Positions 2,951 through 24,044 of a stretch of DNA of 25,368 bases are shown here, one piece after another. The notes under the pieces are model-generated. The model had not been told where the DNA came from and did no database searches. It worked only from the letters and a program-made list of their open reading frames with translations. A program made the position numbers and the translations under genes. Where the stretch lies: contig JAHFJJ010000001.1 in the NCBI GenBank assembly GCA_023245895.1, positions 71,621-96,988 on the forward strand, written 5' to 3'. Numbering within the stretch: position 1 is the stretch's first letter; every line of letters begins with the position of its first letter. This DNA is from Candidatus Doudnabacteria bacterium. GTDB taxonomy: Bacteria; Patescibacteriota; Doudnabacteria; UBA920.

Positions 2951-3919
2951 TTAGATTAAACCCCAAATTAATTTTGCCAATTTGTCCGAGTCATGGCGCA
3001 AAAAACTGCGCTTTAATTTGTCGCCGGCTTTCTTTTTTATTACTCCGTCAGACAATAAATCTTCGGCAATAGCCTCAACTTTGGTTTGGGCCAAGGCCTG
3101 AATGTCAGCTTCCACAAACTTTGCTTTTTCCGCTGAATACTTTTTCAAAATATCAGCTCCCGGTTTTTTGTTGTTTGCTAAAACAAGGTCTATTCTGCCA
3201 TTAAGGTATTTCTCCAAGGTCTTAACAAAATCAGAAGCCTTAAAACCATCTGTCTGGCCGAACTTGGTCATAATATTAGTGACAAGGATTTTTTTGGCTG
3301 GTGATTTATTTACCGCTTCGGCCACGCCTTTGACCAAAAGGCTGGGTAAAACGCTGGTAAACAAATCGCCCGGCCCAAAAATTATGGCATCGGCAGAATG
3401 TAGTGCCTTAAGAACTTTTGGATTGGCCGGCAAATTTGGTTTTAATCTTAAGTCTTTAATCTTTAATCTTGTGCGAGGTTCGTCTATATTATGTTCGCCA
3501 ATTACTTTTTTGCCGTTTTCTAAAAGAGCCATCAGAGTTGTAGGTTTCAATGTTACCGGCAAAACAGCCCCGCGGACATTAAGCAATTTGCCTGCCGCTT
3601 CCAGCGCCTGCTCGGGGTCGCCGGTAATTTTTTCCAGCGCGGCTAAAATTATGTTTCCCGCGGTGTGGCCTTCAAGCGAACCGGCAGTAAACCTGTAGGC
3701 AAAAAGCTGCTTGTAAATTTCATCGGTATAAGAAAGGCCAATTAAGCACTGCCGGTAGTCGCCGGGCGGTATAATGCCAAGTTCATACTTTAACCTGCCG
3801 CCGCTGCCGCCGTCGTCCGCGGTGGAAGCAATTACACTATTATTGGACGGATACTTCCTTAACCCCGACAGCAGGGTAAGCGTTCCCGTTCCCCCGCCGA
3901 TTATTACAATATTTTTCAT
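2951..3919 (-). CDS. YvcK/GlmR (UPF0052, CofD-like) family protein
   Basis: The N-terminal KNIVIIGGGTGTLTLLSGL and DDGGSGGRL motifs are typical of the YvcK/CofD family. The six-frame ORF extends to 3952 (TTG), but the ATG at 3919 just before the GGGTG motif is the more likely start. Confidence 0.8.
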   Translation of the reverse strand: MKNIVIIGGGTGTLTLLSGLRKYPSNNSVIASTADDGGSGGRLKYELGIIPPGDYRQCLIGLSYTDEIYKQLFAYRFTAGSLEGHTAGNIILAALEKITGDPEQALEAAGKLLNVRGAVLPVTLKPTTLMALLENGKKVIGEHNIDEPRTRLKIKDLRLKPNLPANPKVLKALHSADAIIFGPGDLFTSVLPSLLVKGVAEAVNKSPAKKILVTNIMTKFGQTDGFKASDFVKTLEKYLNGRIDLVLANNKKPGADILKKYSAEKAKFVEADIQALAQTKVEAIAEDLLSDGVIKKKAGDKLKRSFLRHDSDKLAKLIWGLI

Positions 3920-3947: not shown

Positions 3948-4025
3948 GACAAATATACAAATCTTAATTATTTCCACAAATATACACAACCGACATTTGT
4001 ATATTTGTGTTGATTTGTATATTCG
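3948..4025. promoter_or_regulatory. cluster of four copies of the CAAATATACA half-site (two direct, two inverted): candidate operator/promoter for the yvcK-like operon
   Basis: Direct copies acaaatatacaa (3949-3960) and acaaatatacaca (3977-3989). Inverted copies tttgtatatttgtg (3996-4009) and tttgtatattcg (4014-4025). On the minus strand the cluster contains an extended -10-like TGTGTATATT. Confidence 0.35.
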
Positions 4026-4031
4026 CGATTA

Positions 4032-5315
4032 CTACTTAATTATTGCCATTTCCTTGCCCACCTCTTCAAAAGCCTTAACCGTACTGTCCATTTGCTCTTT
4101 GGTATGCGCTGATGATATTTGCACGCGAATCCTGGCCTTGCCCTTTGGCACTACAGGATAAGTGAACCCGCGGACGTAAATGCCTTTTTCAAAAAGCGCG
4201 CGGGCCATATTTGCCGCCAATTTTTCTTCAAACAACATCACGGGCGTAATCGCATGCTTACCGTCCCCTCCAAGTGTAAAGCCCAGCTTTTCCATTTCGC
4301 CCCTAAAATATTTGGTATTTTCTTCCAGCTGATTTCTATACTGCGCAAACTTGCTGTCAAAATTCTGTAATACATATAGGGCTGTGGCAGTAATCATAGG
4401 GGGCAAAGCATTGGAGAATAGTGTTGTACGAGAACGCTGATGGAGCACCTGGATTATTTCCTTCCTTCCGGCCGTAAAGCCTCCGCCCGCGCCGCCAAGG
4501 GCTTTTCCAAAAGTTGAAGTTAAAATATCTATCCTATCCATAACTCCGGCCTGTTCAATACTGCCACGGCCGTTCTTTCCCAGCACGCCGCTTGCATGGC
4601 TGTCGTCCACCATAACCAAAGCGCCGTACTTGTCGGCAAGGTCGCAAATTTCTTTGAGCTTGGCAGTAATGCCATCCATAGAAAACACGCCGTCTGTTGC
4701 AATCAATATCCGACGGGGCTTATATTTGCTCCCCTCTCCCCCCTTGTCCGCCATAGCTTTAGCGTCGGCGGATGGGAGAGGGGCCGGGGGTGAGGGTTTC
4801 TCTGGCCTCGATGTCGCCTCCTTTAACTGCCTTTCCAAGTCCCCCATATCCGAATTTTTAAACCTAAACCTTTCTGCCTTGCAAAGCCTAACGCCATCTA
4901 TAATAGAAGCATGATTCAACTCATCAGAAAAAATCGCATCCCCTTCCTTTAAAATAGTTTCAAACAAACCAGTGTTTGCGTCGAAACACGATGTATAACA
5001 AATGGCGTCTTCCTGCCCAAAAAACTTGGCAATTTCTTTTTCCAAATCTTTGTGCACAGTAAGCGTGCCGCAAATAAAACGTACGCTACCAGTACCATAC
5101 CCATATTTATCCAAAGCCTCTTTCGCGGCTCGGGTTAAATCATCGGATGATGCCAAACCTAGGTAGTTGTTGGCACAAAAGTTCAAAAGTGTCTTGTCGC
5201 CGACTTTAATTTCCGTCCCCTGTTTGCCTTCAATAACCCCTTCTTCTTTCCAGGTCCCTGCGTCCTTTATTTCTTTTAGTTCATCTTCAAATTGTTTTTG
5301 ATAGTTTGCGTACAT
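4032..5315 (-). CDS. kbl: 2-amino-3-ketobutyrate CoA ligase (glycine C-acetyltransferase)
   Basis: 427 aa. It aligns end to end with E. coli Kbl (NFCANNYLGL, VRFICGT, LIATDGVFSMDG, TFGKALGGAGGG, ARIRVQISSAHT). It carries a roughly 32-aa low-complexity insertion (RPEKPSPPAPLPSADAKAMADKGGEGSKYKP) that E. coli lacks. Confidence 0.92.
   Translation of the reverse strand: MYANYQKQFEDELKEIKDAGTWKEEGVIEGKQGTEIKVGDKTLLNFCANNYLGLASSDDLTRAAKEALDKYGYGTGSVRFICGTLTVHKDLEKEIAKFFGQEDAICYTSCFDANTGLFETILKEGDAIFSDELNHASIIDGVRLCKAERFRFKNSDMGDLERQLKEATSRPEKPSPPAPLPSADAKAMADKGGEGSKYKPRRILIATDGVFSMDGITAKLKEICDLADKYGALVMVDDSHASGVLGKNGRGSIEQAGVMDRIDILTSTFGKALGGAGGGFTAGRKEIIQVLHQRSRTTLFSNALPPMITATALYVLQNFDSKFAQYRNQLEENTKYFRGEMEKLGFTLGGDGKHAITPVMLFEEKLAANMARALFEKGIYVRGFTYPVVPKGKARIRVQISSAHTKEQMDSTVKAFEEVGKEMAIIK
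4729..4796. repeat. nested GC-rich palindromic element inserted in-frame in kbl
   Basis: The outer inverted repeat cccctctccc (4731-4740) / gggagagggg (4774-4783) is perfect. The inner pair tccgcc (4747-4752) / ggcgga (4767-4772) encloses the 14-nt loop atagctttagcgtc. The element coincides exactly with the extra peptide segment of Kbl. Confidence 0.55.
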
Positions 5316-5316
5316 A

Positions 5317-5949
5317 TTATTCCTTCATTTCCTGGACACGAAAAATATCTTCGTGCTCCAAGTCTATAAAACCTTCCCGGGTGAATACGGCTGCAATACC
5401 CTTTTCTTTTAATTCTCTAAAATATCTACTTAACAAACTGGCGGTTTCATTTTCTTCTTTATCAGGTGAAAGCAATTTTGCCTGACCTGATATTGTTGAC
5501 ATGAAATCTCTGGTTATTTTTTGCAGCAGCTCAATAGCTGAACTTTTTTGCTCCAAAGTTTGTGACTCCTTCAACTCAAAAATTGCCGGGATTGTGTAGC
5601 CGATACCCGGGGATTCGCCGGTAGCCATTTGCAGCTGATAAAATTTAAATTCCTGTAAAGTTTTTTTTCCAAGCCCGCTTTCCGGCTCTCCTGTTAGTGT
5701 TAAAGAAAAATCGCTTTCATGCTTACCCAACACTGTAAGTGAATCGTGGTTCCTGTATATGTCTTTGAGTACGGGCGGGCCCGCAGTACCGGCAACGAAC
5801 CCGCGGAATTCAATAAAAGAATCCGGGCCTGTCTTAAGGCTTAAGAGTTCTTCATATTGTTGTTTGCTTATGGTTGGGTAATTTTCCGCCTCCTCACTGA
5901 ACTCCCTGGAAATAGTCCGTTCAGCGCTATCTTGTTCAAACTCTTGCAT
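5317..5949 (-). CDS. hypothetical protein co-transcribed between the tdh-like gene and kbl
   Basis: 210-aa ORF with no recognisable motifs. Its stop is 1 nt from the kbl ATG and its start is 10 nt after the tdh stop. Confidence 0.55.
   Translation of the reverse strand: MQEFEQDSAERTISREFSEEAENYPTISKQQYEELLSLKTGPDSFIEFRGFVAGTAGPPVLKDIYRNHDSLTVLGKHESDFSLTLTGEPESGLGKKTLQEFKFYQLQMATGESPGIGYTIPAIFELKESQTLEQKSSAIELLQKITRDFMSTISGQAKLLSPDKEENETASLLSRYFRELKEKGIAAVFTREGFIDLEHEDIFRVQEMKE
5769..5789. repeat. GC-rich palindrome gtacgggcgggcccgcagtac inside the hypothetical gene
   Basis: A perfect 10-bp palindrome GCGGGCCCGC is flanked by inverted gtac. It encodes GTAGPPV and is far more GC-rich than the surrounding coding sequence. 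Confidence 0.35.
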
Positions 5950-5959
5950 ATAATTTAGG

Positions 5960-7219
5960 TTAAAATTGTATTAAAAACTTAGGGTGCTTTGCCATCATTT
6001 CCTCAAACCTTTCCTTAGTATACTCTTCTATAGGCAAAATTGTGTCTTGGCCTCTGTCTAAAATTACGTTGAATAATTTTTCCTGGACGCCGTTTTTCGT
6101 GTTTTCCATTAAAGAGCGGGTTGTTTCCCATGTCTGCCAAATTTGCCGGCCAATGACAGCGTGGAAAGTAAAACCGTTGACAATAAGGCGGTTAAAATCT
6201 TCAAACACAAAATCTCCCTGCTTAATCCCAAAAAGAACAACTTCCCCTCCCCTGCGCGTGGCATACAGGCAATTATTTACAGAGGAATTAAAACCGGCCA
6301 TTTCAAAACTAATGTCCACGCCCACGCCGTTGGTAATTTTTTTAATTTCGTCGGTGAGGGATGTGTCATGGATGTAGGGCAGGGCCTTGCCCTGCTTGTT
6401 GGGCAGGCCGGGGGCCTGCACTACATTATACAACGGGATGACATAATCTATTCCCAACTTCTTCGCCATATCCTGCGTAACCGGATTCGGGTCCACTCCT
6501 ATTATAGAGGAAGCGCCCATGCCTTTTAAAACAATGGTTAAAAACATGCCGATTGGGCCTAACCCAAATATGGCGACAGATTTTCCTTTAACATCCACTT
6601 TGCTTGCCGCGTGGACCGCGTTGCCAAACGGTTCCTGCATGGCCGCGACTTCGGGACGGATTTTGGAAGTGTCGGTCTTCCAGACAATATGGCTTGGAAC
6701 TTTTGCAAATTCCGCGAACCCGCCGTCATGGGAAATGCCTAATATCTTTTCATTGGTGCAGACTTCTTTTTGCCCACGCAAACACTGGTAGCACTTATTG
6801 CAAACCACGTGGGACTCGCAAGCCGCGAAGTCCCCGGGCTTTAAATTTTTTACTGCTGATCCGACTTTAATAATTTCGCCAAAAAATTCGTGGCCAATTA
6901 TGCGGTATGTTTTACTTGCTGAAACTGCGAGTGCGGCCGAAGCAGTCCCGTCTTGTTTCAAGATTGCTTCGCCTCCTGCACTCCTCGCAATTTCATCATC
7001 TTTATCTATGCTCCCCAAAATGACATCCCTAAAAGCCTGCCTGTTCCAAATGCCGCGGTCAGTCCCGCAAATGCCGGCGTAGTGGACTTTCATAATTACA
7101 TAATTGGCGTCACCAGGATTATTTTTTTCATCCAAAACCGGCTCGGGAATATTTACCAATTCAAACCCGTGCGATGTTTCCCAATCATATTTAGATTTAT
7201 CAAACACCAATGCTTTCAT
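5960..7219 (-). CDS. tdh: Zn-dependent medium-chain dehydrogenase, L-threonine 3-dehydrogenase-like
   Basis: 419 aa, with an MKAL start. It has the catalytic-Zn motif GICGTD and GHEFFGEI, the structural-Zn motif CESHVVCNKCYQC...C, the GLGPIG NAD motif and EPFGNAVHA. It is adjacent to kbl, as in tdh-kbl operons. It carries two insertions of roughly 35 aa and roughly 15 aa relative to E. coli Tdh. Confidence 0.72.
   Translation of the reverse strand: MKALVFDKSKYDWETSHGFELVNIPEPVLDEKNNPGDANYVIMKVHYAGICGTDRGIWNRQAFRDVILGSIDKDDEIARSAGGEAILKQDGTASAALAVSASKTYRIIGHEFFGEIIKVGSAVKNLKPGDFAACESHVVCNKCYQCLRGQKEVCTNEKILGISHDGGFAEFAKVPSHIVWKTDTSKIRPEVAAMQEPFGNAVHAASKVDVKGKSVAIFGLGPIGMFLTIVLKGMGASSIIGVDPNPVTQDMAKKLGIDYVIPLYNVVQAPGLPNKQGKALPYIHDTSLTDEIKKITNGVGVDISFEMAGFNSSVNNCLYATRRGGEVVLFGIKQGDFVFEDFNRLIVNGFTFHAVIGRQIWQTWETTRSLMENTKNGVQEKLFNVILDRGQDTILPIEEYTKERFEEMMAKHPKFLIQF
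6373..6425. repeat. nested GC-rich palindromic element inserted in-frame in the tdh-like gene
   Basis: The outer inverted repeat is tgtagggcagg / cctgcactaca. It encloses two 7-bp stem hairpins (gcagggc-ctt-gccctgc and gcaggcc-ggg-ggcctgc). It encodes VQAPGLPNKQGKALPY, which is absent from E. coli Tdh. Confidence 0.5.
6926..6989. repeat. second nested GC-rich palindromic element inserted in-frame in the tdh-like gene
   Basis: The outer pair is tgcgagtgc / gcactcctcgca and the inner pair is ggccgaagcag / ttgcttcgcc. The central palindrome is cttgtttcaag. The element encodes part of the roughly 35-aa insertion between the CGTD and GHE motifs. Confidence 0.5.
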
Positions 7220-12629: not shown

Positions 12630-15600
12630 GTGAGAAACAATTCTAAAATAAAACACAATTTCAGAGCCGGGACTTTTAAAGTTTCATATAGTCCGTTTTT
12701 TAGATTAGGCCTGTTTTTAATGGTCTTTGTTATGCTGTTTCATATCAATCCACAGCAGGCCCAAGCAGCCAATTACACGTTTAGCCAATCCAGCTGGAGC
12801 GGTGGAACAACATCAAGCACAATGGTCCACCCGACTAACGAAACCGGCTGGACGCAGTATTCCACCAGTACCAATATTACCGCGGGCTCAACTATTACTC
12901 TCAATTCAAGCTTTGGAGCAGGCGGCTGGTACTCGACCGGAGGTACTTGGACTTACAGGAAAAAGATAACCATAGACCACACTAAAGTCAGCGGATCGAG
13001 CGCGCTGACTAATTTCCCAATGTTGTTTAACGTAACAGATTCGGATTTAAAATACACAGGCAGCGGAGGCGGGGTCGGCACTACATCTGGAAATGATATT
13101 TTATTTACTTCGTCAGACGGAACAACGCTTTTGAATTATGAAATAGAAAGCTACGCTTCCACTACCGGAGCTACCGCCGCCTGGGTTAATATTCCTTCCC
13201 TCTCCCCGACAACCGACACGACTATTTATATGTACTACGGTAATGCTTCAGCGGCGGCGGAAAGCGCCGGCAACATTACCGGCACTTGGGATTCCAATTT
13301 TAAAGGCGTATGGCACTTTCCCAGCACCACGACCTTGGGCGCTAATGATTCAACCAGCAACGCCAATAATGGATCTTCAACAACTACTACCGCCTCTACC
13401 GGCAAGATTGCTGGAAGCGCGAGTTTTAACGGCTCGGCTTTTATTTCCGTCGGCACCGGCTCGTCTTTGAATATTACTTCCCAGCCCGTTACTGTTTCAT
13501 CCTGGGTCAAACCAAGCAGCCAGCCTCCGACTTTCCAGATGATCTTTGATAAAGATGCTTCATACGCTTTTTTTCTCGACAGCAACAGCCCCCCAACAAA
13601 TTCTCTGGGGTTTAGGTCTAACATTAACGGGTCGATTGTTTACGCAAACAATAATATTATAACCACAGGCAGCTGGCAGCATGTAGCGGCAGTTTACGCT
13701 TCAAACACAGTTTCTTTTTACGTTAACGGCAGCCTGGCTTCAACCACAGCACTTTCAAACGCCTTTTCGTCTAACTCAAACGCGGCGGAAATTGGAAGGA
13801 GATTTACTAACGAACAGTTCTTTAATGGTGATATGGATGAAGTTAGGGTATCCTCTGCCGCCCGTTCCGCCGACTGGATTGCCACGGAATACGCCAACCA
13901 AAATTCGCCGTCAACTTTTCTTTCCGAAGCCTCGGCCGTAACTAATGTAAAAATGCTGGTTTCTTCGCCTTACGATTCCGGCAGTTCTAATAATATTTTA
14001 AACCAGGTTACCTGGACTGAAGATTCAACTTTGCCGGCCAATACTTCCGTGACCCTGGCCCTGCGCACGGGCAGTTCCACAACCACACTGGCCGCGGCAA
14101 GCTGGACCAATATTGCCACCAGCACGCCTTCCACCCTGACTTCCAACTGCAGCAAGGCTTCCGCGACAATTACCTGCAGCGCCGGCGCCATTGCCTCTTC
14201 TCTCAAAGACGGGTCCGGCGACGAATGGTTCCAGTACGCCGTAATTCTTAACAGCAGCGACGGAGTCTACACGCCCACAATTAGCGCGGTATCCGTGCAG
14301 TATGTGGTCAATGGCCCGCCGGATTTTAATTCCAACTACCCAACCGCCAGCGCCGGCGGAGTCTATGCTTACCAAAACGCGACCACCACAGACTCAAGTT
14401 TTGGCAAGGTAATAATCCAATACAGCGTTAGGGATACGGACTCAACCTCGGGCAACAGCACGCCCGGATATGTTACGCCTTCTTTCCAGTACAACATTGG
14501 CGGCAGCTGGACCAGCATAACTTCGGGCTACCTGGCATCTGGCGATTTGAACAACAAAGCCGTAAGCGAGTCCAGCTACACGACTTACCAGGCGACCTGG
14601 GACGCGAAAAGCCAAATCCCTACCAATTACCTGGCGACCGCGCAGGTAAGGGTGACTGTGAATGATAATGAGCTTGCGGGCAACACTGCCACACAAGCCT
14701 CAGCTAACTTTACCTTAGATACAACAAACCCTTCGGCCAGTATTCGTTTAGATGCCAGCAGCAACATAATTTATTCCACCTCAACCGACAGCAGCATTGT
14801 TTCATACTTGCTATCCAACAATTCCACCGGCACGCCCGATTCCTTAAATGCCATAAGCGGCATTTGGCAGTCTGCAAGCAGCACTTCGGTATCAACCTCT
14901 ACTGCCTGGACTTTTGCTTCAACCACTTATCCCACAGTCTACTTCCAGGCCCGCGACGCATACAATAACGGCGCCAGTACTACCGCGGTAGCCCCTTACG
15001 CGCCGACCAACATGGACATAAAAGATATTAGCAATACGGCTACAGGCGTGTACAGGGAATTTATTTCCTGGGGGGTTTATTCCGCAACTTCAAGCGCGGC
15101 CTTTTCCAAATATGAAATTTACCGTTCCACGGATGCCAGCAGCTATTCCCTGCTTAGCACAATTATTGACTCCTCCCTTAATTACTACGCCGACTCGGCG
15201 GTGGCCACTAGCAGCACTTATTACTACAAAATAAGAACGGTAGATACCGACACTGACAACTCCCCCTATTCTTCGGTTGTCAGCGATAAACCGGACGGCC
15301 AGGGCGGGACAGACATAACTGCCCCAACCATAAGCTCGGTAACCGTGGCGCAAACCCAGTCAACCTGGGCAACCATTACCTGGACCACGGATGAGCTGTC
15401 CAACTCCACGGTAGGATATTCCACGACTGCGGGCAGCTGGACATCAAGCCAGTCCTCAACCTCATTTTTGCTTAGCCATTCGGTGACAGTCTCCGGGCTT
15501 TTGCCAAATACCACCTACTACTTTAGGGTCCAGTCCTCGGACATTGTGGGCAACACGGCTACTGACAACAACGGCGGCAACGGATACAGTTTTACAACTG

Positions 15601-17591
15601 CCGGCGGTCCGACTATTTCCAATACCAGCGTTTCCGCGCAGGCCACCGGCGCTTCCATAACCTGGAATACGGACCGCAGTTCTGACTCCTACGTATATTA
15701 CTCCACCAATTCCAACCTTAGCTCGCCGCAAGTAGCCGGTAACGCGGCTTTGGTGTCAACAAGTTCAACTCCTTCAGTATTCCAGCATAGAGTCGACCTA
15801 ACAGGCTTGTCCGCGGCCACAACTTATTATTTCTACGTTAAATCCACGGACGGCAACAGCAATTCTTCCACGGACACCAATAACGGCAGTTACTATTCTT
15901 TCCGAACCGTGCTCGATACCCAGGCGCCGGTTATTTCGGGAATTTCAACGCCGGTAATTTCATCCACGGCCGCGGTAGTAGTATGGACTACGGACGAGCC
16001 GGCTACTTCAAGAGTTTCCCTGGGCACGGCTACCGGCAGCTACTCAACCAGCACTCCCGTTGACTCCACCTTAACCATAACCCATGTGGTCGCGCTCTCC
16101 GGTTTAACCGCCTCAACCAAATATTATTTCGTGGCCACTTCCCAGGACCAGGCGGGTAACTCCACCACCTCGGCCGAAAACACTTTTACTTCCGCCGATG
16201 CCAACGATATAATTTATATAGGCAGCGGGGGCGCGAGTGCCGGAGGCACAACCTCCGATATTACCCCGCCTGTCATTAGCAGCATTAAAACAGGAACGAC
16301 CACAGCCTTTAGCGTGACGGTTAGCTTCTCTACCAACGAATCGGCTGTTGGAATTGTTCAGTACGGGACTAGCGACAAATACGGCCAGTCAGGCGCTGAA
16401 TCAAGCTTTACTTCCACCCACAACATTAGCCTTACCGGCCTGCGCATGGGAACCAAATATCATTTTAAAGTTGTCGCCCTGGACAAAGCCGGCAACGAGG
16501 CTGATTCTGTAGACGGAACCTTTGAAACACAATTCTTGAGCGATGACTTAAGCAGCATAAATATCGATGACTTATACCAGTACCAGGAAGAAATTGAAAA
16601 CCAAATTGAATCAATCCTTCCCTCTATAGTCCCGCCGTTTATCGGCAAAGTAGCCATAAGTAACGTAAGCCAGGATTCAGCCGACATTTCCTGGCAGACT
16701 AACCTGAAAGCCTACTCCTCGGTTCAGTACGCTTCTGAAAACGACTACAATAAAGACAGCGAAAAGCCGTACCCAAGCGAAAGCGGCGACATTACCACCA
16801 AAGCCACCAACCATAGCCTAACTTTAACCGGGCTGACTCCCAACACCGTTTACCATTTTCGCGTTAAAGCCTACACCCTGCCCAAAGCCTCAAGCTCAAG
16901 CAAAGATATTTCTTTTACCACCAAGGCCGAGGATATTAAAGCCCACATTGCCGAGGTAAAAATCGATTCCTTCCGGGTGGTTTGGAGTACTGCAGACGCT
17001 TCAGATGCGGTAGTGGAATATAAAAATTTGAGCAACGGGCAGGTTAACCGTAAAGTAGATGAGCAAAAAAAGATTTTCCATGAAGTCACAATAGACAAAT
17101 TACCGTCCGGAACGACTTTTTTGGTAAAAGTTTCCAGCATCAACAATAAAGGCAACTTAACTGAAAATAAAGTGCCGCTTAAGGTAACTACCGGCACGGA
17201 CAACAACGCCCCCACAATTTCAGGACTGAAAATAGAAAGCACTTTGGTGCCGGGTAAACAAGACAAAGTCAGCACTTTAATCCGCTGGAACACGGATGAA
17301 CCGGCCAGTTCGGCTGTCTACTACGAAGAAGGCAGCGGCGCCCCTACCAACCAACACCTGGCCAATAAGGCTGTAGGCGACCAAAATGCTTTTGTAACCG
17401 ACCATGTGGTAGTGCTCGGCTCGCTGAAAGCCGGAGCTATTTACCGCATCCAGGTTGAATCCAGCGACTCGGCCGGCAACCTTACTGCGCCGACTATAAA
17501 AACCATTGTCGTGCCAAGACAAAGCCAATCGGTAACTGATATTATCTTTAAAAACTTTGAAGATTCCTTTAAGTTCCTAAACACGAAATAA
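12630..17591 (+). CDS. giant secreted/cell-surface protein: signal peptide, DUF2341-like domain, LamG/ConA-like lectin domain, Ig-like region, then about seven FN3/PAP-N-like repeats
   Basis: 1653 aa with a GTG start. It has a Sec-type signal (K/R-rich n-region, LGLFLMVFVMLF, AQA|AN). Residues 108-215 resemble DUF2341 (WTYRKKITIDHTKV...TTIYMYYGN). Residues 245-430 resemble LamG (WQHVAAVY...SFYVNGSL...FNGDMDEVRVSSAARSADWI). It has repeated ITWTTDE..S.V.Y....YYFRV.S.D..GN modules, an S/T/N-rich composition and many N-x-S/T sequons. Minus-strand ORFs inside it are spurious. Confidence 0.9.
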   Translation: MRNNSKIKHNFRAGTFKVSYSPFFRLGLFLMVFVMLFHINPQQAQAANYTFSQSSWSGGTTSSTMVHPTNETGWTQYSTSTNITAGSTITLNSSFGAGGWYSTGGTWTYRKKITIDHTKVSGSSALTNFPMLFNVTDSDLKYTGSGGGVGTTSGNDILFTSSDGTTLLNYEIESYASTTGATAAWVNIPSLSPTTDTTIYMYYGNASAAAESAGNITGTWDSNFKGVWHFPSTTTLGANDSTSNANNGSSTTTTASTGKIAGSASFNGSAFISVGTGSSLNITSQPVTVSSWVKPSSQPPTFQMIFDKDASYAFFLDSNSPPTNSLGFRSNINGSIVYANNNIITTGSWQHVAAVYASNTVSFYVNGSLASTTALSNAFSSNSNAAEIGRRFTNEQFFNGDMDEVRVSSAARSADWIATEYANQNSPSTFLSEASAVTNVKMLVSSPYDSGSSNNILNQVTWTEDSTLPANTSVTLALRTGSSTTTLAAASWTNIATSTPSTLTSNCSKASATITCSAGAIASSLKDGSGDEWFQYAVILNSSDGVYTPTISAVSVQYVVNGPPDFNSNYPTASAGGVYAYQNATTTDSSFGKVIIQYSVRDTDSTSGNSTPGYVTPSFQYNIGGSWTSITSGYLASGDLNNKAVSESSYTTYQATWDAKSQIPTNYLATAQVRVTVNDNELAGNTATQASANFTLDTTNPSASIRLDASSNIIYSTSTDSSIVSYLLSNNSTGTPDSLNAISGIWQSASSTSVSTSTAWTFASTTYPTVYFQARDAYNNGASTTAVAPYAPTNMDIKDISNTATGVYREFISWGVYSATSSAAFSKYEIYRSTDASSYSLLSTIIDSSLNYYADSAVATSSTYYYKIRTVDTDTDNSPYSSVVSDKPDGQGGTDITAPTISSVTVAQTQSTWATITWTTDELSNSTVGYSTTAGSWTSSQSSTSFLLSHSVTVSGLLPNTTYYFRVQSSDIVGNTATDNNGGNGYSFTTAGGPTISNTSVSAQATGASITWNTDRSSDSYVYYSTNSNLSSPQVAGNAALVSTSSTPSVFQHRVDLTGLSAATTYYFYVKSTDGNSNSSTDTNNGSYYSFRTVLDTQAPVISGISTPVISSTAAVVVWTTDEPATSRVSLGTATGSYSTSTPVDSTLTITHVVALSGLTASTKYYFVATSQDQAGNSTTSAENTFTSADANDIIYIGSGGASAGGTTSDITPPVISSIKTGTTTAFSVTVSFSTNESAVGIVQYGTSDKYGQSGAESSFTSTHNISLTGLRMGTKYHFKVVALDKAGNEADSVDGTFETQFLSDDLSSINIDDLYQYQEEIENQIESILPSIVPPFIGKVAISNVSQDSADISWQTNLKAYSSVQYASENDYNKDSEKPYPSESGDITTKATNHSLTLTGLTPNTVYHFRVKAYTLPKASSSSKDISFTTKAEDIKAHIAEVKIDSFRVVWSTADASDAVVEYKNLSNGQVNRKVDEQKKIFHEVTIDKLPSGTTFLVKVSSINNKGNLTENKVPLKVTTGTDNNAPTISGLKIESTLVPGKQDKVSTLIRWNTDEPASSAVYYEEGSGAPTNQHLANKAVGDQNAFVTDHVVVLGSLKAGAIYRIQVESSDSAGNLTAPTIKTIVVPRQSQSVTDIIFKNFEDSFKFLNTK

Positions 17592-17603
17592 AGAACCCTC
17601 CAA

Positions 17604-17637
17604 ATTCCCCCCGCCGATGGCAGGGGGAATTTTTTTG
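17604..17637 (+). terminator. rho-independent terminator of the giant gene
   Basis: The stem attccccccgcc/ggcagggggaat is followed by TTTTTTT. Confidence 0.7.
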
Positions 17638-18126: not shown

Positions 18127-19433
18127 ACACAATAATAGAATTAAAGCACGTCAATTTTTGGTACGACCGCGGCAAACCCACGGAAATGCAGGCTTTGCAC
18201 GACATTAATTTACAAATTGGCCAGGGAGAATATGTGGCTTTTTTCGGCCCTTCCGGCAGCGGCAAAACCACCCTGCTGTATTTGCTTTCAGGAACGGAAA
18301 TGTCCCAGGAAGGCGAAGTTATGGTCAACGGCAAAGACATTAGCAAACTGTCCAAAAGAGAAATGGCCATTTACCGGCAAATCGGGGTGGGCATGGTTTT
18401 CCAGCAGTTCAACCTTATTCCCAATTTAACCATACTGGAGAATGTCGGCTTGCCCATGGCTTTTTTAGGCGTTGGCGAAGACAAAAGAATAAAAGAAGCC
18501 AAGCTGCTGCTGGAACGGCTTAACCTGTCTGCCCTTGCCAAACGTTTTCCATATGAACTTTCCGGCGGACAGCAACAGAGAGTCGGCATAGCGCGCGCGC
18601 TGGCCAACAATGCGCCGATTATTGTCGCCGATGAGCCTATTGGCAACCTGGATTCCACCAACGCCAACAACGTGCTGGATTTTTTAAAGGAACTTTGTGA
18701 AAAGGACGGCAAAACTGTGGTTATGGTTACCCACGAAGCCTGGAGCTTAAGAGACGCCAAAAAAATCTTTTACCTGAAAGACGGCGTGGTGGAAAAAGTT
18801 GAAACCAACCACGCCAAACCGGCAACGCAAATCCTGGCGGAACAGCTATATAAACAAACAGCTCCCAAGCGGGCGCAGGAGTCCAAAGAACGGGCGGTGG
18901 CCAGCACCCTGGCCAATGTGCTTTTTCGCGGTTTTTCGGCTGAAGAAAACATGCGTTTCAGCGACTTTCTAACACAGCGCTTAACGGGACAAGTGGACCA
19001 GGTACAATTCCTAGAATTGCTCTATAAGCCTTTCCGCGAGGGCGGCGGAGGTTTGTGGAAAAAACGGGCGCTGGAAACCTCGCGCTACGTTGAAGGGATT
19101 ATCCAGGAGCATATGGACGTGGAAGGAATATGCCTGGAGCTGGAAAAAAATCCAACGGCTCCCCTGCTTCACGAAATTGGCAGTTTAATGGAATGGCTTT
19201 TAGACAGGAATAAAATCCGGCTGGATCAGCTACAGGAAAGCCGCTTCCGCCAAGTTACCACAGAAGTCCTCCGCAACGCTATTAAGCTGGAAGCCTTTAA
19301 AGAAGCGCTGTATTTGCCAAAGTCAAAACTGGGCGTGGGGCTGTCGCATAGGACAACTGAAAGAATTTATGAAAAATTTAAACTTGCTTTGGGTAATTTT
19401 GAACTTGAACCGCTCTCGCCTGAAAAAGCCTAA
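18123..19433 (+). CDS. MacB/LolD-type ABC transporter ATP-binding protein with a roughly 200-aa C-terminal extension of unknown function
   Basis: It has Walker A (GPSGSGKTT), the ABC signature (LSGGQQQRVGIARAL), Walker B (IIVADEPIGNLD) and an H-loop (VTHE). Residues from about 230 to 436 have no recognisable motif. Confidence 0.88.
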   Translation: MNTIIELKHVNFWYDRGKPTEMQALHDINLQIGQGEYVAFFGPSGSGKTTLLYLLSGTEMSQEGEVMVNGKDISKLSKREMAIYRQIGVGMVFQQFNLIPNLTILENVGLPMAFLGVGEDKRIKEAKLLLERLNLSALAKRFPYELSGGQQQRVGIARALANNAPIIVADEPIGNLDSTNANNVLDFLKELCEKDGKTVVMVTHEAWSLRDAKKIFYLKDGVVEKVETNHAKPATQILAEQLYKQTAPKRAQESKERAVASTLANVLFRGFSAEENMRFSDFLTQRLTGQVDQVQFLELLYKPFREGGGGLWKKRALETSRYVEGIIQEHMDVEGICLELEKNPTAPLLHEIGSLMEWLLDRNKIRLDQLQESRFRQVTTEVLRNAIKLEAFKEALYLPKSKLGVGLSHRTTERIYEKFKLALGNFELEPLSPEKA

Positions 19434-20809: not shown

Positions 20810-20841
20810 AAAGTTTGTCCTATAAAAATTTATCGGATAAT

Positions 20842-20873
20842 AAAAAATCTCTCCGTTTAGGAGAGATTTTTTA
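20842..20873. terminator. bidirectional rho-independent terminator
   Basis: aaaaaa-atctctcc-gttt-aggagagat-tttttt. It has a perfect 8/9-bp stem with an A-run upstream and a T-run downstream. Confidence 0.75.
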
Positions 20874-20940
20874 TAGCCGCCAGCTCTCCTTGGCTAAAGC
20901 TTTGGAGGACTTATTCGATTATTTATATTCGTTAAAATAG

Positions 20941-20968
20941 AAAAACTCCCCTTTTTAAGGAGGAGTTG
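20941..20968 (-). terminator. rho-independent terminator of the rRNA operon
   Basis: On the minus strand, the hairpin aacuccucc-uuaaaaa-ggggaguu followed by UUUUU lies immediately 3' of the 5S rRNA. Confidence 0.5.
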
Positions 20969-20976
20969 ATCATATA

Positions 20977-21094
20977 GCGGGCAGCCGCCTACTTTTGCGC
21001 ATACATGCGTATGACTATCATTGGCCCGTGCGTGTTTTACTACTGAGTTCGGGATGGGATCAGGTAGGACCACGCTGGAAATGCCACCCTCGTC
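20977..21094 (-). rRNA. rrf: 5S ribosomal RNA
   Basis: The minus strand reads ...GUGGUCCUACCUGAUCCCAUCCCGAACUCAGUAGUAAAACACGCA..., matching the conserved 5S core (GGUCCCACCUGACCCCAUGCCGAACUCAGAAGUGAAAC). Terminal helix I pairs GAGGGUGGC with GCUGCCCGC. Confidence 0.8.
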
Positions 21095-21303: not shown

Positions 21304-21331
21304 CTATCCGCCTTCGCTAAAGCTTCGGCGG
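21304..21331. repeat. copy of the short palindromic core element (atccgcc-N14-ggcggat with loop cgctaaagct) in the 23S-5S spacer
   Basis: It has a 7-bp perfect stem atccgcc/ggcggat and a 14-nt loop ttcgctaaagcttc. The kbl insertion has the same stem and loop length and shares the 10-nt loop core cgctaaagct, in the opposite orientation. Confidence 0.45.
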
Positions 21332-21717
21332 ATGACTCTCTACTAAATAAATTATAGTGAGTCACAAATTGCTAGTCAATAGAAATAGAATTAAAATTTT
21401 CGGTTGATTAGTATTGCTCGGCTGAACACATTACTGTGCTTACACCTGCAACCTATAAAACGAGTGGTCAGTGATTAGTGTTTAGTGATTAGTATTGCTA
21501 CTATCCACTGCCCACTGCACACTATCCACTAGTTATGATACGGGGTAGTCTTCCCCGAACCTTTATTATGTATTGCTACATAAAACGAAACCTAGTTTCT
21601 TGGACGGCTTCACGCTTATATGCATTCAGCGCTTATCCTAACTAGACCTAGCTACCCCGCCATGCCGCGGACGCGACAACGGGTACACCAGAGGTCTATG
21701 CATCCCGGTCCTCTCGT

Positions 21718-22569
21718 CACATATTCTTCTGTCACCAGAAGTGCAGACTATATCTTCATCCTATCTTATACCTTAGGCTCCTGGGCCATAGTATTTTTTT
21801 ATGATAGGTGTCGGCGTATTATAGAAATAGTAGAAAGTATAAAGTTGAAAGTTTAAAGTAACTGCAATTGCAGTCCTTTTCACTTTCTACTTTTAACTTT
21901 TAACTACCTTCCATCTCCTCTTTCGAGTCAGTCGTTACGGGGTCAAACCTAAAATCTTAAATAATTCAAGTCCGGTTTTCTTTTTCCGAGTTGCGTAGTT
22001 ATTATTTTGAATTATTGTTATACAGCTTATAATTTTCCTGAGTTCAGATTGCGTAAAATTAGCAATCTTTTTCCCTTCCAGAATTCCGGCTGCTTTATAC
22101 AAAGCCGCAGCTTGTTGCTTCTTAAAACGTATAAATGGAATTAAATCTTTAAGAATGTTTTTAATTTGAGTCACCCCGTTTATACGAAGTTCGCTCATTC
22201 CGTCATTTCTGCGGGATAAGTACCCAATGCCTAAAACTTTCTTAATCCAGAAAAGTTCTGCTTCATGGCGGCTATCCTGATAAAAACAGATAGTGCACAT
22301 AAAACGAACTTTTTTCTTTCCATCTTTGCGCTTTTTGATTTGCAACATTAAGCTGCCGTCTCCGTCTAAAAAGCCGGCAATATAAGCTAAATCAATTTTA
22401 GATCGACTTCCCACGGTATTGTCTTAATATTCTTGGTCCTCAAGTAAATTGTACCATAACTGAAGAACCGTTACAATTATGGTTATCAACGGATGCAAAA
22501 TATATTAAGATTTCACCGTTATTAGCCGAATTTTCAAGGCAGATTACTCTGCCAAGTAGCAAACCCTTT
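21718..22569 (-). other. intron (group I-like, 852 nt) inserted in the 23S sarcin-ricin loop (E. coli U2656/A2657 equivalent)
   Basis: The 5' exon ends ...GCGCAUCCCUAGU (22570). The 3' exon starts ACGAGAGGACCGGGAU (21717). Joined, they restore the universal SRL CCUAGUACGAGAGGACC closed by the AUCCC/GGGAU stem. The intron starts with A after an exonic U and ends in G. Confidence 0.7.
21935..22414 (-). CDS. LAGLIDADG homing endonuclease (single-motif) encoded in the SRL intron
   Basis: It has the LAYIAGFLDGDGS motif near its N-terminus. It is 159 aa with a GTG start, and lies entirely within the intron. Confidence 0.85.
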   Translation of the reverse strand: MGSRSKIDLAYIAGFLDGDGSLMLQIKKRKDGKKKVRFMCTICFYQDSRHEAELFWIKKVLGIGYLSRRNDGMSELRINGVTQIKNILKDLIPFIRFKKQQAAALYKAAGILEGKKIANFTQSELRKIISCITIIQNNNYATRKKKTGLELFKILGLTP

Positions 22570-22699
22570 ACTAGGGATGCGCCCAATCAAGTTTCGAACA
22601 CCCACAGCAGATAAGGACCAAACTGTCTCACGACGTTTTGAACCCAGCTCGCGTACCACTTTAATATGCGAACAGCATAACCCTTGGGAGCTTCTTCAC

Positions 22700-23308: not shown

Positions 23309-24044
23309 CATAATGTTAGCTTCATGTTTCCATGAAGTTCAGACTATATCATTCCATCAATTGGATGGATTCGGCGTTTAGTCGTTGAGGGTTTTTACTA
23401 AATGATTCTTTAAAATTTGTTAAATTATGCTTTCGAGTTCTACCTTTTCCTTCATTTAAGTCCTCACGAAGTTTTACTATTTCTAGCAACCCTTCCTGAT
23501 TTAAATGTTGGCTTGCAAAAACTAATCTTGCAATTTTAGAGAATAACGAATAGTTTCTTTTTTTACTAGCGGACAAGAAACCGAACCGGTCAAAGAAAGG
23601 AATTATTTTTTCTTTGAGTGCTGTATGATTTTGGACAATATATTGATGCACGCCATCTTTCCTATGGTCAATGCGACCACAGCCTAAATGATGCTTCAAC
23701 AAAGCAAGTACGGTAATGTCTTTTTGAGCAACATTAAACGTTAATATTACTTGCCATAATACTTTACTGTCGTTTCGTTTACGAAGGGAAACATTAAAGC
23801 TTCCTTCTCCGTCTACAAAACCTGCAAAGTAATTTCCAATTTCAACAGGAATTTGCTTTAACCAATTTTGATCCATAAAGTTTCCTTCTGAATCTTTTAG
23901 TAAATCTTCCCTGCGGATTGACTGTATCTTGTAAATTTTTACTGTCAATTTAATGACGAGTATTACAAGCTTTAAGCACATCAAAGTCCTTTGTGTGCAC
24001 AGTTATTCCCGCAAATAGCCAAATTTTATAACTACAACATGTTC
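23309..24044 (-). other. group I-like intron (736 nt) in 23S helix 69 at the L1917-equivalent site
   Basis: The 5' exon ends ...GGCAGUAACUAU (U at 24045). The 3' exon starts AACUGUCCUAUGGUAGCGAAAUUCC (23308). Joined, they give the H69 loop UAACUAUAAC. The intron ends in G. The junction can slide by 3-4 nt because of the local repeat gaac...gaac. Confidence 0.65.
23349..23984 (-). CDS. LAGLIDADG homing endonuclease (single-motif) encoded in the L1917 intron
   Basis: It has the NYFAGFVDGEGSF motif. The likely true start is the internal Met at 23876 (MDQNWLKQIPVEIGNYFAGF...). The longer N-terminal extension probably reads through intron core sequence. Confidence 0.85.
   Translation of the reverse strand: MMCLKLVILVIKLTVKIYKIQSIRREDLLKDSEGNFMDQNWLKQIPVEIGNYFAGFVDGEGSFNVSLRKRNDSKVLWQVILTFNVAQKDITVLALLKHHLGCGRIDHRKDGVHQYIVQNHTALKEKIIPFFDRFGFLSASKKRNYSLFSKIARLVFASQHLNQEGLLEIVKLREDLNEGKGRTRKHNLTNFKESFSKNPQRLNAESIQLME

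Follow-up and report, generated by a model that had tools for sequence, protein, structure and literature searches.

The DNA analysed here, hereafter the window, is a stretch of 25,368 nts from a Candidatus Doudnabacteria bacterium (contig JAHFJJ010000001.1, positions 71,621 to 96,988), a member of the Patescibacteria or candidate phyla radiation (CPR). It contains kbl, a gene of threonine degradation, its operon partner tdh and an rRNA operon. The coding sequence of kbl includes an extra in-frame segment in which two hairpins are nested, and the inner one, a unit of 30 nts, recurs in the rRNA operon and in many other genomes. The features of kbl are the following:

4032-5315, minus strand: kbl, encoding glycine C-acetyltransferase / 2-amino-3-ketobutyrate CoA ligase, 427 aa, taken from the list of open reading frames (ORFs)
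4719-4811, minus strand: the whole extra in-frame segment of kbl (codons ~169-199), RPEKPSPPAPLPSADAKAMADKGGEGSKYKP, a gap relative to solved Kbl structures and the hypervariable loop site of Patescibacteria Kbl
4731-4783, no strand: outer hairpin element with arms 4731-4740 CCCCTCTCCC and 4774-4783 GGGAGAGGGG, from an inverted-repeat search and folding, common to the orthologue P0002
4743-4772, minus strand: inner 30-nt hairpin unit TCCGCCGACGCTAAAGCTATGGCGGACAAG, encoding SADAKAMADK, in the 3-nt apical loop of the outer hairpin and absent from the orthologous locus L121

Two nested hairpins in kbl

In a search of the Protein Data Bank (PDB), the product of kbl matches solved Kbl structures (3tqx, E = 4e-148; 1fc4, E = 4e-134), and its nearest homologues come from metagenome-assembled genomes of Patescibacteria and Doudnabacteria, where they are annotated as glycine C-acetyltransferase. 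Because the alignment to E. coli 1FC4 breaks into two blocks (window residues 4-168 with 7-172, and 200-426 with 176-400), about 31 residues of the window protein (window ~4719-4811, ~93 nts) are extra. The GC content is 0.60 at positions 4700-4849, against 0.35-0.50 in the remaining kbl, and the GC-rich in-frame extra segment described by an initial annotation of this DNA, made from the sequence without database searches, is indeed present. Folded as single-stranded DNA, the 66-nt core of the segment reaches -17.9 kcal/mol (z = -2.7), and none of 200 shuffled sequences was as stable. An AlphaFold model of moderate quality (mean predicted local distance difference test, pLDDT, of 71) was used solely to locate the insert and to estimate its disorder; the initial annotation had proposed to map the insert onto a Kbl structure. 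The insert lies between helix 157-168 and strand 203-208, with a pLDDT below 50 at residues 177-195, which is consistent with a tolerated, disordered loop. The identical 427-aa Kbl, unit included, is carried by two more contigs, L194 and L195; since these are separate assemblies, the insert is no assembly artefact.

The arms of the outer palindrome are 10 nts each and 100% complementary, and the inner arms (TCCGCC at 4747-4752 and GGCGGA at 4767-4772) enclose a loop of 14 nts. The closest orthologue compared at the DNA level, L121 (P0002; 92% identical outside the loop), has the outer hairpin, CCCTCTCCC-AGG-GGGAGAGGG, without the inner unit. Both loci share CCCTCTCCCA followed by GGGGGAGAGGGG, and exactly 30 extra nts, those of the inner unit, stand at the junction of the two in the window. 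The comparison by codons gives the same result: both genes read GGCCCTCTCCCA followed by GGGGGAGAGGGG, with the 30 nts added in between in the window, and no microhomology is visible at the insertion junctions when the window is set against L121. The three-tier nested palindrome of the initial annotation thus keeps its outer and inner arms and its 14-nt loop, but it is not a single element, since L121 has the outer hairpin alone.

A second, independent gain is seen in another pair of orthologues. In L123 (P0085), CTCCCCCCT is directly followed by CAAGGGGGAGG, whereas L122 (P0033) has 30 extra nts, CCCTCCTTCGCTAAAGCTTCGGAGGACAGG, at this junction; the same insert, with one base changed, is found in the separately assembled L131. 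The unit of L122 has the architecture of the family described below, with a compensatory stem (TCCTCC/GGAGGA), lies within an outer hairpin different from that of the window and differs from the window unit at 8 of 30 positions. Both clean gains in Kbl are placed precisely in the loop that caps a pre-existing GC-rich hairpin.

Upstream of the apex, three 1-nt homopolymer indels (AAA/AA, CCCCC/CCCC and CCCC/CCC) distinguish window 4784-4811 from L121 3500-3530; together they displace the reading frame and bring it back again within the outer element, which is read as KPSPPAPLP in the window and NPHPGPLP in L121. Because these indels re-read the DNA of the outer element, it is the DNA rather than the peptide which is conserved, and only the total frame is kept. 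Judged by comparison of the sequences, the kbl segment is best described as a pair of distinct elements that differ in age: the outer hairpin came first, and the 30-nt unit was added later at its apex.

A dispersed family of 30-nt hairpins

Copies of the unit in the window were searched with a sequence pattern and with a covariance model, R1. The pattern TCCGCCNNCGCTAAAGCTNNGGCGGA matches exactly two sites, 4747-4772 on the minus strand and 21307-21332 on the plus strand, and matches none of 100 shuffled sequences. R1 scores the inner kbl unit at 45.5 bits (E = 4.5e-9) and also retrieves two copies in the rRNA operon:

21307-21336, plus strand: second full copy of the unit, TCCGCCTTCGCTAAAGCTTCGGCGGATGAC, non-coding, in the 23S-5S spacer; R1 46 bits, E = 3.5e-9
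20886-20907, plus strand: degenerate third copy, CTCCTTGGCTAAAGCTTTGGAG, with the compensatory stem CTCC/GGAG, downstream of the 5S rRNA gene; R1 17.9 bits, E = 0.019

The rRNA-spacer copy announced by the initial annotation is therefore real, although its coordinates (21304-21331) were a few bases off. It differs from the kbl copy at four loop-flank positions and in the tail. The 5S gene occupies 20976-21091, and the 3′ exon of the 23S gene, identified through its sarcin-ricin sequence GACGAGAGGACCGG, extends from near 21720 to ~21450. The 23S gene holds two ORFs for LAGLIDADG homing endonucleases (21938-22414 and 23352-23984, both on the minus strand) and group I intron-like signals at 21725-21858 and 22237-22579; the Rfam 23S match ends at 22523. 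Because the apparent 1.4-kb gap between 23S and 5S is mostly intron and 3′ exon, the second copy truly lies in the 23S-5S spacer. Among the Rfam 15 families, only rRNAs match the window at gathering score, and none overlaps 21307-21336 at E ≤ 1. The third copy sits between an rRNA terminator-like hairpin (~20935-20960) and a 15-bp perfect, bidirectional terminator-like hairpin (20840-20874).

Outside the window, a scan for CCGCCNNNGCTAAAGCNNNGGCGG with one genome per species found at least 120 loci; the family figures given here refer to 122-124 full-length copies among the matches listed. The consensus of the unit is 5′-Y CCGCC NN CGCTAAAGCT NN GGCGG R CARG-3′ (Y-CCGCC-NNCGCTAAAGCTNN-GGCGG-R-CARG), i.e., a 6-bp stem, a conserved loop of 14 nts and an unpaired tail of 4 nts, and its 30-nt boundaries coincide exactly with the piece gained in kbl. 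The scan count alone is no proof, because 18 fixed bases could give on the order of 100 chance matches in genomes with 65% GC; the case for a family therefore comes from the bias at the free positions, from covariation of the closing pair and from the tail. In the 122 listed copies, the free positions are biased in the unit (C8 93%, T17 98%, T6 79%, C19 75%) and in the tail (C 70%, A 58%, G 63%), and the composition of the flanks is flat up to position -1 and from +30 on. The closing pair outside the fixed stem covaries, being T-A in 54 and C-G in 51 of the copies among the matches listed. No direct repeat of at least 2 nts, as expected of a target-site duplication, is found at 112 of the 123 listed sites. 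Flanking inverted repeats were rejected as a general rule, as 4 of 123 listed copies have such a stem of at least 6 bp, compared with ~1.8 expected and a maximum of 6 in permuted controls. Among the matches listed, copies stand alone or follow one another head-to-tail with no more than one base between them (L111, period 31); arrays with unique spacers were not seen, and a CRISPR repeat was rejected.

Named CPR lineages account for 32 of the at least 120 loci. The hosts among the matches listed are CPR, Bacteroidota, Verrucomicrobiota, Alphaproteobacteria, Acidobacteriota, Planctomycetota and Nitrospirota, and they include the genomes of isolates (Bradyrhizobium, Terrimonas, Flaviaesturariibacter and a complete Maricaulis chromosome). 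Viral contigs gave 34 matches, ~20 of them with the full unit and tail. A further ~12 divergent copies are present in 238 kb of mostly CPR DNA, or about one per 20 kb near the seed loci. With three copies in the window and at least 120 loci elsewhere, the element belongs to a dispersed family, as the initial annotation had surmised from its two copies.

The comparison of copies inside and outside coding sequences, which had likewise been suggested, shows that 33 of 124 listed copies lie in long open frames. In all six of the open-frame copies checked, Pfam domains span the unit: TGT twice (Doudnabacteria and Azambacteria), Pyr_redox_2, Nuo51, CysRS and a P-type ATPase. IleRS, PheRS-beta, RlmN, RumA and others seem, by eye only, to be interrupted likewise. 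Both orientations occur within genes, one encoding [SP]AFAKA[ST]A[DG]K (e.g., AFAKASADK) and the other xSAEALAKAG or RRSFSEGG, which argues for an element acting at the DNA level rather than an mRNA signal. The 30 nts equal 10 codons and can be read through in four of six frames, of which the commonest yield hydrophilic, Ala/Lys-rich peptides. A Microgenomates genome (L077, KSADAKAMADKK) has the exact 30-mer of the window (30/30), in frame, within the sequence for the C-terminal tail of its NusA. This tail carries units at 3732-3794 and 3948-3977, and the loop of the upstream one holds a diverged, oppositely oriented unit-like hairpin, i.e., a unit within a unit.

Many copies are close to tRNA genes. 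Among the matches listed, 26 unit-tRNA pairs are at most 300 nts apart, which involves about one fifth of the copies, and several abut or overlap the acceptor ends; on a rough estimate only, this proximity is several-fold above the expectation from tRNA gene density. Abutting or overlapping units were seen in L003, L036, L038, L057, L069, L071, L082, L112 and others. A repeated neighbour is tRNA-Ser, the 3′ end of which (...TCCGCC) equals the left arm of the unit. Units downstream of a tRNA are mostly in the opposite orientation, and units upstream mostly in the same orientation as the tRNA.

Turnover in the Kbl loop and inserts in tdh

Across 120 Kbl homologues of 70-100% identity, the stretch between LKE..SR and RR.LIATDGVFS contains an insert of 0 to ~45 aa. 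Several peptides recur in these loops (PENPHPGPLPGGEG, PSPQPSPAGGEG, NTDKETDEHG, VVQA[TP]GLPPRG and TPSFSKEGVGG). The initial annotation had taken orthologues without the segment as support for an insertion, and such orthologues exist: the base state LENQLKAAGERRRKLIAT, without any insert or hairpin, is found in many relatives, and L121 lacks exactly the inner 30 nts. In metagenomic orthologue DNA, the loops of L128, L134, L138, L129 and L127 are independent strong hairpins, with a nested hairpin of -50 kcal/mol in L128, two hairpins in L134, one in L138, two repeated ones in L127 and a GTAG-tagged one in L129.

The loop content departs from the gene tree, as loops differ between genes which are 92-97% identical outside the loop. 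Outside the loop, the window Kbl shares 94% identity with P0003, the loop of which is different, and 92% with P0002; between P0021 and P0039, the latter lacking an insert, the corresponding identity is 97%. In the latter pair (94% nucleotide identity), P0021 has an additional ~84-98-nt composite of three element types, namely a TDK..HG-type element, a variant of the 30-nt unit, CCCTCCTCCGCCAAGGCTAGGGAGGACAGG, and a GTAG hairpin, GTAGCGCAGGCCCCTGGCCTGCTAC. Three Kbl lineages have loops with a unit (P0001, P0021 and P0033); they are not mutual nearest relatives, and their nearest relatives (P0003 and P0002; P0039; P0023) are without the unit. The Kbl site is a hypervariable hotspot with rapid turnover in Patescibacteria.

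The operon partner of kbl contains inserts as well:

5960-7219, minus strand: tdh, L-threonine 3-dehydrogenase, operon partner of kbl, 419 aa, matching TDH structures of the PDB
6926-6989, minus strand: insert at tdh site i, a long imperfect palindrome, EIARSAGGEAILKQDGTASAALAV, at a variable site of the orthologue alignment
6372-6426, minus strand: insert at tdh site ii, ATGTAG...CTACAT around GCAGGCC/GGCCTGC and GCAGGGC/GCCCTGC, encoding VVQAPGLPNKQGKALPY, absent from solved TDHs

Its product has 419 aa, compared with 343-350 aa in the solved TDHs which it matches, and the orthologue alignment shows two hypervariable sites, each with an in-frame palindromic insert. As DNA, site i folds with -15.5 kcal/mol (z = -3.1; 1 of 200 shuffled sequences as stable) and site ii with -17.7 kcal/mol (z = -4.2; 0 of 200). 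Site ii is a GTAG-tagged element resembling repetitive extragenic palindromes (REPs), and the same GTAG-GCAGGCC element is found in the Kbl loop of L129 and L158, which belong to other CPR bacteria. Other strongly folding stretches of coding sequence (cofD 3301-3370; the ABC ATPase 18751-18820 and 19021-19090; others) were rejected as ordinary coding sequence without dispersed repeats, the one in cofD being a conserved-looking protein motif. Within the window, tdh and kbl are the only genes with repeat inserts in frame.

In relatives, the conserved gene order is glmS, tdh, a small variable ORF, kbl, cofD, the genes of a GNAT protein and of a nucleotidyltransferase, and gap. The ORF between tdh and kbl in the window (5317-5949, minus strand, 210 aa) has no Pfam match; the genes called in this interval encode 155 aa in L121, 337 aa in L122 and 114 aa in L123, and none is called in L158. 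At the tdh-kbl junction, L148 and L149 compared with L150 and L151 form an intergenic pair of filled and empty sites. The filled state, present in two contigs and absent from two close relatives, is a 69-nt composite in which a reverse-oriented variant of the unit, CTTGTCCGCCGTAGCCTTGGCGAAGGCGGA, lies between GAATGCC(GA) repeats, and the pair was rejected as a clean 30-nt event for this composite nature. The kbl-cofD intergenic region (3949-4023) is AT-rich, with a 14-bp inverted repeat, ACAAATATACAAAT / ATTTGTATATTTGT, and more copies of ACAAATATAC; a gene of the Trp-repressor family stands between kbl and cofD in L121 and L122 and is missing in the window. Elsewhere in the window, positions 12630-17591 (plus strand) encode a large, probably surface-located protein of 1653 aa in which DUF2341, LamG-like and repeated FN3 / purple-acid-phosphatase-N domains were recognised, and a perfect 10-bp hairpin (17602-17632) follows its stop codon.

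Relation to known repeats and possible origin

The behaviour of these elements recalls the Rickettsia palindromic elements (RPEs), of which RPE-1 to RPE-8 were reportedly described by Ogata et al. in 2000 and 2002. RPE-1 is ~100-150 bp long and restricted to Rickettsia. As in the RPEs, a palindromic repeat lies in frame in housekeeping genes, its peptide falls in tolerated regions, and copies are also found in non-coding DNA. However, the elements described here are of 30 nts (inner) and ~40 nts (outer), occur in many phyla and carry the tail CARG (CYTG on the other strand). The RPE-like character proposed by the initial annotation concerns behaviour only, the elements being much shorter. In its main points the interpretation of that annotation is upheld, the outcome of each of its three proposed checks being favourable. 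As to its statement that such behaviour had not been described for CPR-type genomes, a literature search for the unit sequence and the encoded peptides gave no match, and nothing relevant was found in the literature on CPR/Patescibacteria with palindromic or REP elements. The inner family is not CPR-specific, since it occurs in many phyla and in viral contigs.

In the survey by Di Nocera et al. 2013 (PMC3733652), REPs fall into two superfamilies, GTAG- and CGTC-tagged, RPE-4 and RPE-6 are equated with CGTC-tagged REPs, and REPs are mostly intergenic, although some lie within ORFs of Opitutus terrae, R. conorii, Thauera and other bacteria and encode 20-30 aa; Patescibacteria are not mentioned in the sections consulted, nor were they found by a term search of the more recent REP survey PMC12306157. 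Like REPs, bacterial interspersed mosaic elements (BIMEs) and REP doublets forming hairpins (REPINs) (PMC3116915), the elements found here are imperfect palindromes of 20-40 nts with a short unpaired tag, and they occur as singletons, dimers and mosaic clusters. The unit is such a short palindrome and forms a stem-loop, but its tail, CARG or CYTG depending on the strand, is neither GTAG nor CGTC; the GTAG-tagged, REP-like elements are those of tdh site ii, of P0021 and of the Kbl loops of L129 and L158. Furthermore, the stem of the unit is short (6 bp) and its conserved loop large (14 nts), and REP families are usually lineage-specific, whereas the unit is nearly sequence-identical across phyla. 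The copy number of REPs is typically above 100 per genome.

Single-stranded transfer has been proposed for REPs and REP-associated tyrosine transposases (RAYTs) and is established for IS200/IS605 (PMC8266576, PMC2817692). The unit shares with IS200/IS605, with palindrome-associated transposable elements (PATEs) and with RAYT/TnpA-REP systems (PMC8266576, PMC2817692) its hairpin-defined ends and the absence of duplication, and movement as single-stranded DNA would fit its presence in loops and transcribed loci. However, these elements insert on the 3′ side of a specific target motif, a tetra- or pentanucleotide, while the flanks of the unit are flat and no HUH transposase was found in the window. 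IS1397 and ISKpn1 insert into the loops of REP palindromic units. Insertion in the apical loop of an existing palindromic repeat is common to both situations, but IS1397 and ISKpn1 are full insertion sequences with transposases, whereas the incoming DNA is here a 30-nt hairpin. MITEs (miniature inverted-repeat transposable elements) measure 50-500 bp and bear terminal inverted repeats as well as target-site duplications (reviewed in PMC10969869 and PMC2229807). MITEs such as Correia and Nezha are likewise small non-autonomous repeats in or overlapping genes; identity with them was rejected, as 30 nts is too short and there are no terminal inverted repeats with duplication.

The kbl segment is probably a mosaic of non-autonomous REP-like (REP/RPE-like) hairpin DNA in a permissive loop, kept since the frame is intact. 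Its older layer would be the outer hairpin CCCTCACCCC..CCCTCTCCC / GGGAGAGGG, common to some close orthologues, and its younger layer the 30-nt unit, which, once the P0002 lineage had branched off, would have entered the 3-nt loop at the apex of that hairpin. The filled and empty sites, together with the dispersal of the family, suggest that the unit travels at the DNA level, probably in the form of a single-stranded hairpin which is mobilised in trans. Because the unit combines a hairpin with an asymmetric tail, leaves no duplication and prefers transiently single-stranded places, the favoured, if still tentative, model is single-stranded transfer by a trans-acting RAYT or IS200/IS605-type HUH enzyme, by analogy with those systems. 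The targets would be transiently single-stranded DNA, e.g., hairpin loops and heavily transcribed stable-RNA loci, and selection would then filter the survivors, for which 10 codons, four open frames and a hydrophilic Ala/Lys-rich peptide may be favourable. More generally, and as a possibility of about the same modest standing, the unit may be a hitherto undescribed, ultra-small mobile hairpin which is almost unchanged in Patescibacteria, Bacteroidota, Verrucomicrobiota, Alphaproteobacteria, Acidobacteriota, Planctomycetota and some phages, causes no target duplication, prefers single-stranded spots (hairpin apices including its own copies, tRNA and rRNA flanks) and has a length and a loop (AKA/ALA) tuned for harmless translation.

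Several observations weigh against a mobile element. R1 finds only three copies within the 25-kb window, none of the window ORFs matches a transposase family, and no transposase or other mobilising gene was identified. The flanks of the 122 listed copies contain no conserved target motif, whereas IS200/IS605 use a tetranucleotide, and most copies elsewhere are without flanking inverted repeats, so that apex targeting is no general rule. Cultured-phage records gave no match and plasmid records only partial matches to Thermus plasmids; the family is therefore not ubiquitous. The near-identity of the unit across phyla is unusual for REPs, and the hairpin could have a conserved cellular function. 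Finally, the choice between gain and precise loss of the unit is made by parsimony, without a dated tree.

Some of these points also bear on other explanations. The 30 nts could have been copied without a dedicated enzyme from another genomic copy, e.g., that of the rRNA operon, by replication template switching or by gene conversion, with the extruded outer hairpin as the priming site. Hairpin loops are classic sites of template-switch mutation, and such an origin would agree with the position of both clean Kbl events exactly in the apical loop of a GC-rich hairpin, with the lack of a target-site duplication and of a conserved target, with a window devoid of transposase and with the further copies in the same genome. 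Yet the spacer copy is not the donor, given its four different loop-flank positions and its different tail, and a 30/30 match is instead found in the NusA gene of Microgenomates; moreover, unless there is a defined step of excision or cleavage, it is difficult to explain sharp and identical boundaries at over 100 unrelated sites, and no microhomology is visible at the junctions. A templated origin is thus considered unlikely, though it is the alternative to which we give most weight. The hairpin could also be a functional cellular signal, i.e., an RNA processing or stability element or a protein-binding site near stable-RNA genes, selected in kbl for regulation of the tdh-kbl mRNA or as a peptide linker. 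The 26 unit-tRNA pairs within 300 nts, the location of two of the three window copies in the rRNA operon and the conservation of loop and stem across phyla, with covariation, speak for this, and the loop of the complementary strand might form tandem purine-purine pairs closed by a GC mini-stem. Nevertheless, intragenic copies lie in both orientations in unrelated genes, the closest relatives do without the unit, the spacer copy has no Rfam match at E ≤ 1, there is no T-run for termination, and the peptide is predicted to lie in a disordered loop, which together make a signal function improbable.

A still smaller probability is given to an ancestral unit in the Kbl loop, lost from the relatives by precise deletion of the hairpin. 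Palindromes are prone to deletion, the loop turns over fast, and unit-bearing loops exist in three Kbl lineages (P0001, P0021 and P0033). These are, however, not each other's nearest relatives and their nearest neighbours are without the unit, the outer hairpins differ, as do 8 of the 30 positions, and no flanking direct repeats are present to drive a precise deletion. In addition, the deletion would have to match the 30-nt boundaries of the family exactly, which itself implies a discrete element. As for an assembly or chimera artefact, the source is an uncultured organism known from a metagenome-assembled genome, and repeats can mis-assemble. The probability of this is negligible, as three contigs from independent assemblies carry the 427-aa Kbl with its unit, the parallel insertion is present in two assemblies which are 1 nt apart (L122 and L131), and family members occur in the isolates Bradyrhizobium, Terrimonas and Flaviaesturariibacter and in the complete Maricaulis chromosome.

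CPR proteins are known for odd insertions, and CPR genomes are regarded as streamlined and poor in mobile DNA. At least some of these insertions are hairpin repeat DNA in permissive loops, with a turnover much faster than that of the host genes. Such inserts inflate protein length, create spurious similarities between "hypothetical proteins" (FAKATADK, PLPxGEG, VVQAPGLP) and can mislead CPR alignments and phylogenies. The Kbl loci provide clean filled and empty sites for a 30-nt element, with exact boundaries and landing in hairpin apices without duplication, and through such sites the spread of REP-like sequences, a long-open question, becomes directly testable. Since the unit recurs across many phyla and on viral contigs, one may ask what machinery, or what kind of selection, holds a 30-mer so nearly constant over these distances. 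If the unit is indeed an ultra-small mobile hairpin, the housekeeping proteins of small-genome bacteria would have in it a general source of short in-frame insertions.

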